Shown here: positions 7,226 to 52,020 of the stretch, in pieces | Layout: each line of letters starts with the position of its first letter | Numbering within the stretch: position 1 is the stretch's first letter | The notes under the pieces: generated by a model | Database searches by the model: none | Seen by the model: only the letters and a program-made list of their open reading frames with translations | What the model was told of the DNA's origin: nothing | Program-made: the position numbers and the translations under genes | Assembly (NCBI RefSeq): GCF_006345805.1 | Contig: NC_043008.1 | Location: forward strand, 29,822,001 to 29,886,000 | Reading direction: 5' to 3' | Length of the DNA: 64,000 bases | From: Octopus sinensis | Lineage: Eukaryota

Positions 7226-7535
7226 CGTGAAGTATATTTGCCACGTAAATGTGGCTTACCCATATGAGACGATGCTACTATATTTTATAACCTCAAGAGG
7301 ACATCTCCTCCAGCTGGTAATGACACACTCTCTGTCTCCAATCGGTATTTGCGAAGTGAAATCATCGTTCACATCTCTAGCCTTACATGATACACATGGG
7401 CCCGGGATTTTGCGGGTTACTAGCCATAGTCTACAGTAGCATCGTCCCATATGGGTCAGCCATATTCAGGTGGCAAATATACTTCACAATGTCGTGCTGC
7501 TACTATTTACATCTTGCTCAGGGATTTATTATTGC
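7226..7535. mobile_element. Non-coding fold-back element, family H1 (relative of the HHR-bearing copies), HHR truncated
   Basis: Inverted arms gtgaagtatatttgccac (7227) / gtggcaaatatacttcac (7470-7487); homologous to 31008, 47645 and 51604 copies; flanked by (TA)n. Confidence 0.8.
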
Positions 7536-7609
7536 TATATATATATATATATATAATATATATATATATATATGTGTGTGTGTGTGTGTGTGTGTGTGTG
7601 TTAAACAAG

Positions 7610-10380
7610 ACAACAAGCATTAACGCAAGGCACACATCTCTAGTTATATGCAATATTATTATAGGAAGTAATGCAAAATCTTACAGGTGTTTTTGGTATA
7701 TCCACCTGTATGGGATATACCTTCATCAGAGACAAATAGGGAAAGCAATAGGGGAAATGTGAATGGTAGAAATGACTAGTAAGGGATTAAGGAGATGGAA
7801 AGAAAGAAGAAAAAGAAGCATAAAATTTCTTAGTTCAACTTTTCGAAGATATAGAAACCACAACGTGAGTCCTCAGCAGCAATCCTGCGTAGATCTATGA
7901 GCATAAGTCTTTAGATGCAATCCTACGTATATCTATGTGGGCAAAAATCATGATATATTGGTCATCCCAAGAGTAGTAGATGTCTGGTAGTCTTAAAGTC
8001 CAAAGTTGTTGGGAAGGAAATTTAGTAGTAACTACTTGTGTCCGTTCAGGCTAAGGACGGTCAGTGGCAGTAGAGTTATTTCTAGCAATGGGGTTATGGG
8101 TATGTAGGTAGTTATGAGTATATAGGCAAACACTAATAGGCAAACTAATACTAAAAATACTAATTATACTTATTATAATTATACTAATTATATATTATAT
8201 TATATTATTATGATTATACTAATTATAATTAATATCATTATACTAATTATATCATAATCACTACAACTAATAATACATATAATTCAACTACTAATAGGAA
8301 TAGCAATAATATTAATATTAACACGAACGGCAACATTATTATTACTTAAAACCGTACCATTATTAACACTCCTGCCAAGAACGCAACTATTAACCATAGC
8401 AATAGCTGCAATATTAATTTCGCTAATACCACCACTAATACTAACACTACTGCTTATGATACTACTACTGCCGCCGCCGCCGCTGCTGCTGCTGCTGCAA
8501 TTACTCCCGCTAATATTACTAATATTACTCGTAATTCTACCAGTACTACTACCATTGTTCCACTTCCATTACTATCACAAACAGCAGTAGCTTTCCTTAA
8601 GTGAATACACGTCATTGATTGGTTGAAATTACCCAAATACGAGACTTTTAACACGAAATAACGTCGAAAATACCAAGTTTTGTGAAAAATGTTCAAATGT
8701 TCAAAGTAAACCGTGATCAGCTTGAGAAGAATACGAAGTATACGATGTTTCAACCTTTTTAGTTTTAACGAAATGATCTGTGAGCCAAATGGAACAGATC
8801 CACTACTGTTGTAATGATAATAATTATTACAACAGCGACGCCGATAATGATAACGACCATGATAAAAAATAATAGTAACGCTGGCATTAATATCGACACT
8901 AGAAACGACAACAATAATAACAGCAATATCACGATCGATTTGCCTAATACCACCACTGCTACTACAAGCACTGTCTCACATCTCTCTCCAATTAAACCAT
9001 CACAGAACCGGTACAGATTGCCCACTGCAGAAGATTCAACGTCGTATACCAATGAACCGTCCACATAGTAATTAACTTCTGTAGCTACTACATTAGATCT
9101 TGCACCAATTTTTAAACAAAGGTATTATGCACATTTAAACTCGTTTAAATATAAGAATACCAATTTCACATCACTAGTCAACCACGACACCATCTAATTA
9201 ATAAAAAAATACAGTATAAAATTTCCTGAGCTATAATAGAGACGGGCACCTTATATCAGTGCCAGCACACCAGTAGTGCATTTCACTTAAAAGAAGCTCA
9301 CAAAATTCTAACCCACAACTCACCACATTTGCTTAATAAACACAACGGGACCTTCACTACCTTCTGCACTTTAAAATTTTTTCATAAATCTAAATGTAAG
9401 CTCACCCCCACTCACATACACAACCCTATGAGCATTAACACATAACGCTTCTATATCTCTATAAATCTTATTTTTACCATTTGCCTTACCCCTATTCTCA
9501 TAACACAATAGGGTAAATACAATTTCTTTAATTTATCCTTAATTCATTTTTACACCTTAACCCAATAAGTCCCCTAATATAAATCTATCAACTCTAACTC
9601 CCACACATAAATAATTTAACATTCAACTAGTTCTTGCATTCTTGACTACCTACACGCCATAACACCATTGCTAAAAATAAATCTACTGCCACTGACCTTA
9701 GCCAGAACGGACACAAGCAGTTACAACTAAATTTCCTCCCCAACAACTTTGGATTTTAAGACTACCTGACATCAACTACACTCTTTAAATTCCTTTCATT
9801 TTGCTCTATTTTTTTACCGTATCTTCCTCTACCTCTTCATCCTCTTATCTTCTCGGCTACCACTTACACAATTCTTAGACACCATACACCTATGCACCTT
9901 ACTTTACCCTATAGCCAATCCCTAAAATCCCCCACCTCACTCTATATACGTCTCTATTTCTTTTCTTTTCTTTCCTCTTACCACTTAATAGCCACATCCA
10001 AGACCATTCTGTTATTGAACGGTGATGTGTTCGCGTCTTTTAACTTGGGATTCCTACTATATCATGATTCTAACCTTCATGGATATACGCAGGATTGCAC
10101 TTAAGCATTTACGCTCGTAGATCTACGCAGGTTTGCTGCTGAGGACTCATGCTGTGGTTTCTATAAATTCGGAAATTTGAACTATGAACTTTTATGCTTC
10201 TTTTTCTTCTTTCTTTCCATCTCCTTATTCTGTTACTCCCTTCCTCTGTGTCGTCATCTCATTAATATATACCATTCACATTTTCCCTGGTGATGGAATA
10301 TCCTAGAAAAAGCTGTAAGATTTTGAATTTCTCCATATAATAATATTCTATACAACTAGAGATATTTACCTTGCCCTCAT
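7610..10380. mobile_element. Decayed Penelope-like element with inverted terminal (pLTR-like) arms
   Basis: 7625-8115 is a diverged reverse complement of 9645-10376 (with internal deletions); each arm has a degenerate hammerhead motif; interior is low-complexity (TAA/ACT/GCT). Confidence 0.6.
7678..7732 (-). ncRNA. Degenerate minimal hammerhead ribozyme motif (GAAA mutated)
   Basis: Minus strand: tct CTGATGA a ggtatatcc catacaggt ggatatacc aAAAAC acct GT A aga; perfect 9-bp stem II. Confidence 0.6.
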
Positions 10381-10680
10381 ATTTTCTGTTCTGTTTCTGT
10401 TCTATTTTCTGTTCTCCATCGGAAATCTAAAATTGCTCCATAACTAACGTCTCGGCTATAACCTTGTAGCCCTAATAATCCGTTACAGCACTTTCCTAGC
10501 GTACCTAATCGTTTAGATGACCTGTGAACTAAACACCCATACTTATATATATGTATATATATATATATATATAAATATATATATATATACATATATATAC
10601 ATATATATATATATATATATATATATATTATATATATATATATATATATATATATATATATATATTTTATTATATAGAAG

Positions 10681-10733
10681 GAGCTTCTACAGGACTAGAA
10701 CTGTTTCATTCAAGAGAAATCTTCAGGAAGCTT
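10681..10733 (-). ncRNA. Candidate hammerhead ribozyme motif in a short element between (TA)n tracts
   Basis: Minus strand: agcttc CTGAAGA t ttc tctt gaa t GAAAC agttcta GT C ctgta gaagct. Confidence 0.5.
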
Positions 10734-10829
10734 CAATACAGGAAGCTAGTATTGAGTACCTTATTTACTGTGGTTAACCCCGAATCAACCCGGGACCTAC
10801 ATATATATATATATATATATATATATATC

Positions 10830-50961: not shown

Positions 50962-51245
50962 ATACAAAATTTAAAGGACTAACCACTAAAAGTGGACAGC
51001 CAACATGCTAGATACAGACGTCAAATCGCTATTTTCCACAAATAATATGTTCTCAAATAAAGAGAACATATTCTTTGTGGAATATAGCGATTTGACGTCT
51101 ATATCTAGCATGTTGACGGTCCACTTTTAGTGGTCACTCCTTTAAATTTTGTATGTAAAAGTATTTTAATCTTCGGATTTTTTAATATGCTGGACCACTG
51201 GTTTTAATTGATTAATATCAATTTCTACCCTTATTAAATTTTTAA
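50962..51245. mobile_element. Fold-back element, family H2 (arms about 93 bp, 7-nt loop, one-sided tail)
   Basis: 50962-51054 pairs with 51062-51154; tail 51155-51245 matches 40610-40700; (TA)n/(CA)n flanks. Confidence 0.85.
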
Positions 51246-51361
51246 TTACACACACACACACACACAGATATATATATATAATATATATATATATATATAT
51301 ATATATATATATACATATATATGTATATATGTATATATAAATATATATATATACACACACA

Positions 51362-51522
51362 TACGATGGGTTTATTTCAGCTTCCGTCTAACGAATCCAC
51401 TCTCGAGAGTTTGGTCAGCCCGAGGCTAATGAAGACACTATCCCAAGTTGCCACGCAGTGAGGCTGAACATGGAACCCTGTTGTTGTTAGGCAAGCTACG
51501 TACCACACACCCACACCTGCGC
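51362..51522 (-). mobile_element. SINE family A 5' half
   Basis: tttcagcttccgtcta...ttggtcagcccgaggcta...ccacgcagtgaggctgaac. Confidence 0.8.
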
Positions 51523-51603
51523 ATATATATATATATATATATATATATATATATATATATATATACAGAGAGAGAGAGAGAGAGAGAGATCACTGTGGTT
51601 ACA

Positions 51604-52020
51604 CTCCCTAATATTATATATAATACATCTCTGAACGATGTAGCTGCACGACAATGTGAAGTATATTTGCCACTTAAATGTGGCTAATCACTAAGGGTGG
51701 ATGCTACTGTACCTTGTAGCCCCAGAAGAACATCTTCTCTAGCTGGCTATTGACACATTTTCTGTTCCCAGTAATTGCAAAGGGAAGCCATCCTTCCCAT
51801 CGTCGAACTGACGTAATACGCACGGACCCAGGTTTCTGGGTATTTACCCGTCGTCAGCGCACGACATTCACCGGTCTTTGATGCGGATGGCTTCCCTTTG
51901 AAATTACTGGTCACAGAAAGTGTGTCAATACCCAGCTGGAGATGTTCTTCTGGGCCTGCAAGCTACAGTACCATCCACCTTTAGTGGTTAGCCACATTTA
52001 ACTGGCAAATATAATTCATA
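51604..52020 (-). mobile_element. Family H1 fold-back element with a hammerhead ribozyme in the loop
   Basis: Arms 51655-51793 and 51885-52020 are inverted; the HHR lies in the spacer; the tail 51604-51654 is present on one side only. Confidence 0.85.
51819..51863 (-). ncRNA. Minimal type-I hammerhead ribozyme
   Basis: Minus strand: cgtgcg CTGACGA c gggta aa taccc a GAAAC ctgg GT C cgtgcg; full core, stem I with two G-U pairs, C-A mismatch at the base of stem II. Confidence 0.85.

Follow-up and report, generated by a model that had tools for sequence, protein, structure and literature searches.

Introduction

Minimal hammerhead ribozymes occur in the pseudo-long terminal repeats (pLTRs) of those Penelope-like elements (PLEs) that carry an endonuclease (EN+ PLEs); here, we analyze elements of this kind in a 64,000-nt stretch of the Octopus sinensis genome, further called the window (contig C12:29822001-29886000; the assembly comprises 2.72 Gb in about 30 large contigs). 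The described pLTR hammerheads are of type I, with a short helix I, a palindromic helix III, and an extra base before helix II; they form many families per genome, mostly as single truncated copies, and include opposite-strand pairs and U3-A8 core pairs (PMC4209133). The PLE insertion unit has a head-to-head inverted arm, a tail of 30–40 nt at one end, palindromic junctions, (TA)n or AT-rich targets, and uncut RNA as the template (PMC3846280, PMC8557442; start sites in PMC11167929). The octopus elements share these features. They differ from the described hammerheads in having G3-C8 in one family, a very long helix II in several, and about 24 intact motifs per Mb, and from the described units in the tail length (30–133 nt); counts of short–long end pairing and of arms that stop together are reported below.

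Metazoan non-LTR (long terminal repeat) retrozymes are non-coding tandems of 150–450 nt (350–390 nt in mussels) with a canonical type I hammerhead, GC content under 50%, and a strongly self-paired circle, ranging from monomers to multimers (PMC7229834; 10.64898/2026.07.22.740005). Family F1 of the window is alike in these respects and differs in its inverted arms and in the two-end tail signature of PLEs. The Hydra clade of PLEs combines RWK-like, DKT, CxCx5C, CxxC, and CxH motifs, a C-terminal GIY-YIG domain, a canonical hammerhead, and insertion into (TA)n (PMC8557442); the same combination is seen in family F3, which differs by a length of about 5 kb or more (due to a long microsatellite-rich 3' untranslated region, UTR) as compared to under 3 kb, and by thousands of young copies.

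The available parts of PMC7229834, PMC8557442, PMC11167929, and 10.64898/2026.07.22.740005 leave open which enzyme moves retrozymes, whether the circle is the template, and how inverted ends with a one-sided tail originate. In the octopus genome, these questions can be approached through a retrozyme diverged by 0.4%, for which two start sites are mapped, and through young PLEs of the Neptune type and the Hydra clade, whose insertions can be counted by the thousand. The elements are of a known kind with new members in this genome, and their value lies in a young retrozyme with PLE footprints and in counts that constrain the mechanism. They also supply this genome with tens of thousands of hammerheads and short, perfectly paired hairpins; a related repeat annotation (PMC13282606), in its available part, is silent on ribozymes. 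A literature search, with most subscription papers outside its reach, yielded no paper on octopus hammerheads, nor any on retrozymes with tails or inverted arms; cephalopod families may be listed in the supplements of PMC4209133, PMC7229834, and PMC8557442.

Results

Two fixed ends and joint stopping of the arms

We interpret the hammerhead elements of the window as insertion footprints of PLE enzymes, formed by two primings on one RNA in (TA)n tracts, and assign this interpretation a probability of about 0.78. The following counts are from F3. Loci were taken in order along contig C1, and positions are relative to C3 of the hammerhead core; most loci were selected via the tail, hence zero-tail cases cannot appear in this sample. 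The 3' ends lie at +55..68 (short) or +129..130 (long, with the tail) in 149 of 152 arms, and all 52 fold-backs (53 rows, one duplicate removed) have one short and one long end; two ends among them are shortened, one by the locus edge and one at +107. The same is seen in a list compiled independently of the tail, in which every one of the 30 opposite-strand pairs (within 8 kb) combines the two end types, 24 with exactly one exact tail match and the other six on inspection. (TA)4 follows 172 of 178 ends (duplicates included), compared with 3.8% in the background. Genome-wide, the 28-mer before the short end has 3,658 exact copies, and the tail junction, 1,665. Both end types recur in F5, F2, and F8, whose tails measure about 66, 133, and 30 nt, respectively, in score-ranked, biased samples. 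An initial annotation of the window, made from its letters, had noted the (TA)n boundaries and one-sided tails, which is confirmed; its suggestion of an undescribed class does not hold, as the inverted 5'-truncated arm, the tail at one end, and the AT-rich target follow the published PLE insertion pattern (PMC3846280; PMC4209133; PMC8557442).

The two F3 arms also stop jointly: of 52 pairs, 38 have both arms stopping at or after –9 and 13 have both running on, leaving a single mixed pair. Independent RNAs would yield 20 mixed pairs (P = 4e-10), and mixed pairs are easier to spot in 3-kb loci than long–long ones. From this joint stopping we infer two primings on one RNA. PLE enzymes would nick both strands of a (TA)n tract, and two cDNAs would be primed on one RNA at two fixed sites, yielding a fold-back with one short and one long end. 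Both cDNAs would run toward the 5' end of the same RNA and be joined by microhomology and short snap-back inserts, while the trailing enzyme would either stall near the other start site or displace the cDNA found there. In L1 twin priming, two primers on both target strands use one RNA, which results in an inversion. Here, in contrast, both start sites are fixed and the arms usually overlap, so that strand displacement on undegraded RNA would be needed. In vitro, a PLE protein cuts and extends both strands, starting at two RNA sites that bound the tail (PMC11167929).

Some observations count against this interpretation. One F3 fold-back outside the counted sample (L277) has two tails, and F2, F7, and F9 have no open reading frame (ORF) upstream in the 3-kb loci examined; F2 has two end types and fold-backs. 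Hammerhead-cut RNA as the template was rejected, the cut site being at or near only one of 152 F3 arm starts and two of 48 F1 ends.

Several F3 loci have a more complex structure. In L280, L281, and L325, mini fold-backs are repeated two or three times with their flanks, and a complex tandem-inverted array of short Hydra pieces is seen as well; assembly duplication may be involved. Unrelated sequences of 235–306 nt are captured between F3 arms and joined at the –6/–7 edge (L381 1627-1862; L358 1237-1543).

F1, a young retrozyme with PLE-type ends

F1 is a non-coding tandem with a 353-nt unit and a type I hammerhead per unit, the arrays holding 1–7 units. One of its 30-mers has 720 exact copies, and extrapolation from contig C1 gives about 300 loci. 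Across 34 merged loci with a total of 128 units or pieces, 111 substitutions are seen over 28,862 nt, a divergence of 0.38%, and no ORF-linked copy is found among these loci. The circle is predicted to be highly self-paired, its fold of –116.9 kcal/mol comparing with –82.6 ± 5.0 kcal/mol in shuffles (z = –6.9; 0 of 60 as low). A 383-nt contig, that is, 353 nt plus a 30-nt overlap, is found in runs X2 (closure seen) and X1 (from length), and only broken F1 pieces, with no 383-nt contig, in X3 and X17; all four runs consist of contigs and are taken as RNA by guess only, and the closed contig gives a weak hint of circular RNA.

Twenty of 21 F1 fold-backs have one end at the unit boundary and the other 39–49 nt further. 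With the common variant at position 82 left aside, sequence variants are shared in 100 of 231 comparisons within a locus and in 6 of 7,512 between loci, and private variants span both inverted arms in three loci (on contigs C23, C9, and C1). The 48 5' ends are evenly spread (Kolmogorov–Smirnov p = 0.17), without a stop at helix I or at the cut site, unlike those of F3. Taken together, the short/long end signature, the shared private variants, and the even 5' ends point to copying of a circle by a PLE enzyme; the end signature is more direct evidence of PLE mobilization than the co-occurrence and pLTR similarity from which such mobilization of retrozymes was proposed (PMC7229834; 10.64898/2026.07.22.740005).

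On these sequence patterns, we lean toward F1 being a non-coding retrozyme whose circle is copied by a PLE enzyme. The hammerhead would cut multimeric transcripts to monomers, which would circularize, and the enzyme would copy the circle in one to seven turns from two start sites of the same kind as in F3. That F1 is still active, with a dimeric PLE enzyme priming two cDNAs on one circle from both (TA)n strands, is a more tentative suggestion, to which we give slightly less than even odds. Mobilization in trans by PLE enzymes, envisaged by the initial annotation, fits the 353-nt F1 lineage only. If the scheme of an active F1 primed twice on its circle is true, it would provide the first insertion-level evidence of PLEs mobilizing animal retrozymes via circular RNA, and the same footprints would then establish twin priming on a single RNA as the origin of the inverted repeat plus tail of PLEs, the hammerhead being located at the capped 5' terminus of the PLE transcript.

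Some data speak against copying of a circle. No ORF that could mark a partner PLE is seen beside any F1-lineage copy in the loci examined; one fold-back ends at neither site; once the 7-unit array, a mosaic at two positions, is set aside, within-locus sharing of variants drops to 22 of 115 comparisons; and gene conversion could homogenize arrays. The mosaic 7-unit array and the many variants confined to a single unit agree with a different origin, in which no circle serves as the template and the arrays arise from linear multimeric donor transcripts, or locally through gene conversion and unequal crossover; 10.64898/2026.07.22.740005 favors such local amplification. However, private variants extend across both inverted arms in the C23, C9, and C1 loci, the divergence leaves little time, evenly spread partial 5' units fit truncated cDNA, and no donor array with the same private variant is present among the 34 loci. 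We consider a linear or local origin unlikely, while allowing it some weight, and retain copying of a circle as the favored explanation for F1.

Unit-length insertions, considered as a sign of one full turn, were dismissed, since they are seen in three of 34 loci, all of them score-ranked and none in the contig C1 listing. Single-orientation F1 insertions end at the short site in 13 of 14 cases (the sample is partly query-biased). One locus (L030, C17:37049110) comprises three exact units with a target duplication of about 13 nt, outside a (TA)n tract. The F1 unit is present at 0.83–1.00 of its words in runs X1–X20 under eight organism codes, a pattern in which close relatives, mislabelled or mixed samples, and recent transfer are indistinguishable.

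The 5' edge of F3 mini fold-backs

The 5' starts of F3 arms (n = 152) concentrate around helix I: 80 are at –9..+19, 12 at –160 to –10, and 6 further 3', while 54 run on. The F3 pLTR carries a TATA box that begins 29 nt ahead of –6, where helix I has its first base. Genome-wide, 844 arms stop just before helix I (with a non-genomic base there) and 1,424 run through; part of these 844 stops are palindromic junctions, whose exact end is uncertain by a few bases. The unexplained base at –7 is G in eight loci (L058, L312, L319, L332, L357, L381, L449, L461) and C in one (L462), as assigned by hand with most junctions set aside as ambiguous. Judging by these junctions, the extra G likely comes from a copied cap.

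We find it probable that the RNA of the Hydra family begins at a capped RNA polymerase II start at the first base of hammerhead helix I, and that the thousands of F3 mini fold-backs (130–210 nt) are run-off by-products, which would lack the TATA box and hence be dead. Some observations argue the other way. The 54 arms that run on continue well beyond the proposed start; among 30 ORF-linked copies, only 4 have their beginning at –5..+7, and many have long upstream pLTRs; and the extra G is ambiguous at most junctions, where a reverse transcriptase (RT) adding an untemplated C would look alike. The arms and ORF-linked copies that pass the proposed start suggest that read-through RNAs are also used.

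Alternatively, RNA structure, a bound protein, or a junction-friendly palindrome may halt the RT at helix I and so create the hot spot. The hot spot does lie on a short palindrome, and F5 has a similar cluster 8–15 nt before the core (9 of 24 pair spacings are 119–134 nt) with no TATA box seen by eye. Yet F1, with a stronger hammerhead, has no such stop (3 of 48 ends, 3.5 expected), the TATA spacing and the extra G fit a capped start, and arms ending at –6 also jump to unrelated sequence (L312, L319, L381). Such a stop thus appears rather unlikely as the source of the boundary, and the capped start remains our preferred account.

A Drosophila intron ends at hammerhead helix I (PMC4209133); splicing as the source of the –6 boundary in F3 was ruled out, as no GT follows three ORF junction points. 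In L357 (1433-1465), repeated short template jumps are seen at the 5' edge, each with an extra G.

Self-priming as a source of the second arm

A fold-back may also be made by self-priming, proposed in the discussion of PMC3846280: the cDNA or an antisense RNA would fold back, the second arm would be copied from the first, and an endonuclease would trim one end, leaving a one-sided tail. In agreement with this, the F3 junction class seen most often is a perfect 4-nt palindrome (24 pairs among the 100 matches listed), short templated inserts occur, and the arms share variants and 5' extent. However, a copy of the tail arm cannot reach further 5' than its template, while the tail-less arm often does, and a tail-less arm cannot template the tail. 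Further, arms without any overlap are found in the window copy of F3 and in L403, L408, and L410, so that neither arm was copied from the other there, which contradicts self-priming as the sole route. The consistent pairing of a short with a long end and the joint stopping of arms favor two primings on one RNA over self-priming, which we regard as improbable. Junctions vary from copy to copy, being a 4-nt palindrome or short templated inserts, hence each fold-back was built at insertion, not copied as a unit.

Hammerhead motifs and the state of their cores

Hammerhead-derived sequence is present at all 11 places listed by the initial annotation (12 motifs), at the coordinates it gave. A strict descriptor has a sole match in the window, at 47798. 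The relaxed descriptor tolerates one mismatch and an extra base in front of helix II, as well as U4C and any complementary 3-8 pair. As it was composed after inspecting the window sites, the fair test is a separate 570-kb genome sample. At a score of at least 9, it finds five motifs in the window (10726–, 14507+, 23392–, 23409+, 47798+) and a mean of 0.1 (maximum 1) in 40 block shuffles. In the genome sample (57 evenly spaced 10-kb stretches), there are 14 motifs compared with 0.5 (maximum 2) in eight shuffles. The claimed high density is thus borne out at 24 per Mb (13–40), which extrapolates to about 64,000 (34,000–110,000) genome-wide; the density in the window is approximately threefold higher. 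The Rfam model RF00163 scores 47792–47836 at 32.2 bits (E = 2.3e-6), slightly below the gathering score of 34, while a scan of the whole window gives microsatellite noise only among the matches listed (150 of 300).

Six of the 12 motifs (47798, 51857, 10726, 14507, 23392, 23409) have a usable core and helices, U4C being present in 14507, 23392, and 23409; U4C is documented as a natural hammerhead variant (PMC3088659). Two (31403 and 36343) keep the core letters with weak or broken helices, and four have core lesions: G12A at 7729, deletion of the first core box at 10287, several changes at 28716, and A13G at 43048. Nevertheless, the commonest letters of the nearest 14–30 genomic copies restore the full core in all seven families tested, and the family alignments show type I hammerheads, with the conserved core, three helices, and the open end at helix I. 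The 3-8 pair is C-G in F1–F5 and F7, U-A in F8, and G-C in F6; such family-wise swaps of a complementary pair argue against chance motifs. U3-A8 is known from Schistosoma PLEs (PMC4209133), and a G3-C8 double mutant is partly active (PMC11167929). Overall, the hairpin elements with a ribozyme shape are genuine, and most of them are dead terminal pieces of PLEs.

The natural G3-C8 swap of F6 is seen in most of 14 copies (L132–L145; window 28708–28749), and no natural G3-C8 in a PLE was found in the literature search among the matches listed. Parsing of 36336 with a long helix I and a deleted base proved wrong, the family alignment backing helix III as initially annotated. Candidate motifs at 1639, 5527, 6965, and 53537 are without convincing relatives among the loci examined. 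The region 5289–5647 is an old fold-back, 74% complementary, with the first core box in each arm and no clear second box, possibly from another decayed family. The random sample adds at least seven hammerhead families (L191, L211, L223, L226, L234, L240, L242), several with a long helix II and one or two with U3-A8.

Assignment of families to PLEs

The hammerhead elements (Table 1) are mostly pLTR ends of several PLE families, of which at least two and probably five are protein-coding. The predicted link to PLE pLTRs is borne out by direct pLTR–ORF connections in Neptune-type F4 and Hydra-clade F3, both having a single ORF with RT and C-terminal GIY-YIG between pLTRs. In F4, the GIY-YIG at 10828 is joined to the 14503 pLTR across the (CA)-rich UTR, and two open 1008-aa frames with RT and GIY-YIG elsewhere (L186, L187) have a 14503-type pLTR on both sides. 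The CX2-5CxxC linker is present before GIY-YIG but is shared with Nematis, and F4 is provisionally called Neptune-type. In F3, the ORF follows the tail in 30 of 30 loci, and all five long copies read carry frameshifts. Its translations, read by eye, contain RWR (for RWK), DKT, CxCx5C, CxxC, and CxH and no CCHH, i.e., all diagnostic motifs of a Hydra-clade PLE, as which F3 is classified by sequence. For F6, RT or endonuclease (EN) remnants are upstream in 5 of 14 loci and in the window copy; for F8, RT or EN is upstream of the hammerhead pLTR in L222 and L173; for F5, a weak RT/EN remnant is upstream in L189 only (E = 2.6e-8).

The description of the elements as non-coding, hence, applies to F1 and fails for 14503, which lies in the 3' pLTR of a PLE with GIY-YIG starting at 10828. 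Nor are all the families unrelated, as initially stated: 47792 and 51819 belong to one lineage (about 79% alike), and 7678 and 10287 are two arms of one 2.9-kb F2 insertion.

Microsatellite-rich 3' UTRs of 3 kb are seen in the Neptune-type PLE (window 11130–14285) and in the Hydra PLE (L278 3950-7040), which suggests that part of the (CA)n/(TG)n load of the genome is PLE-borne. Internally deleted Hydra copies (L312, L317, L319) have the first 194–310 nt past the tail joined to a pLTR starting at –6, and no splice donor at the joints.

Table 1. Elements with hammerhead motifs and related copies in the window (window coordinates).
Position	Strand	Feature	Details
7224..7535		Older F1-lineage fold-back	Truncated before reaching hammerhead; short end on the left, tail end on the right
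7599..10543		F2 fold-back	Minus arm 7599–8112 (short end), hammerhead 7678–7733 with G12A; plus arm 9645–10543 (133-nt tail), hammerhead at about 10280–10320 without first core box
10663..10800		F3 mini fold-back, Hydra-clade PLE pLTR	Minus arm 10663–10735 (short end), intact hammerhead 10682–10732; plus arm 10749–10800 (tail only)
10828..14632	+	F4, young 5'-truncated Neptune-type PLE	GIY-YIG 10828–11127; (CA)-rich 3' UTR; 3' pLTR 14286–14632 with minimal hammerhead 14503–14537 (U4C)
23255..23472		F5 mini fold-back	Minus arm: tail, hammerhead 23359–23396; plus arm: short end, hammerhead 23405–23442 (U4C); 3,784 exact genomic copies of one 31-mer
27551..28890	+	F6, decayed PLE	RT and EN remnants 27551–28499; hammerhead 28708–28749 downstream
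31008..31167	+	Older F1-lineage 3' fragment	Tail end, no hammerhead
31283..31406	-	F9, old hammerhead	Helix II insert of about 100 nt; only two relatives among loci examined
36251..36489	+	F7, old copy	Hammerhead 36338–36443, long helix II; helix I broken in window copy
41879..43140		F8 fold-back	Minus arm: tail of 30 nt, partial deletion of hammerhead, insertion of another repeat at 42044–42193; plus arm: hammerhead 43045–43080 with A13G; U3-A8 pair in family
47642..48002	+	F1 retrozyme	Single 353-nt unit followed by a few repeated bases, flanked by (TA)n tracts; 3' end of the short type
47792..47836	+	F1 hammerhead, intact, canonical type I	C3 at 47798, predicted cut after 47830; helix I extended with internal loop
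51601..52022		Older F1-lineage fold-back	Minus arm: hammerhead 51819–51863, long end; plus arm 51885–52013: short end

Folding of the fold-backs and the host sequence

In computed folds of overlapping fold-backs, forcing helix I with an open core costs 68–78 kcal/mol, and the antisense arm is transcribed first whichever strand is used; hence, such fold-backs are predicted to block their own ribozyme. The cost is 4.4 kcal/mol for the F1 monomer and 1.2 kcal/mol for the non-overlapping window copy of F3, both of which could still fold. The proposal that the elements bring both double-stranded RNA and self-cleavage sites is mostly contradictory, as the hairpin wins in overlapping fold-backs. No host exon was found, and the intronic setting given by the initial annotation is not confirmed: 133 of 153 non-repetitive frames from the window and 60 kb of neighboring sequence gave no Pfam match above the cut-off. 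The ribozymes serve the elements, and host function is not indicated.

The initial view, that the elements are independent non-autonomous palindromic families copied in trans and supplying double-stranded RNA and cleavage sites to host introns, accords with the thousands of near-identical mini fold-backs, the more than 1,000 pLTRs that keep TATA and could make short RNAs mobilized in trans, and the truly non-coding F1, but is very improbable given the copy-to-copy variation of junctions, the mini copies without a TATA box, the existence of ORF-bearing parents, the predicted block of the ribozyme fold, and the lack of a host exon among the frames above.

Other repeats in the window include a 179-nt inverted duplication of a fragment resembling an endonuclease of long interspersed nuclear elements (LINEs) at 54725–55089, whose arms are 98% complementary and enclose a loop of 7 nt. 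At 24397–26614 and 57606–63067 (minus strand), there are long remnants of LINEs that include RT and end in a restriction-like endonuclease; these may be R4/Dong-like.

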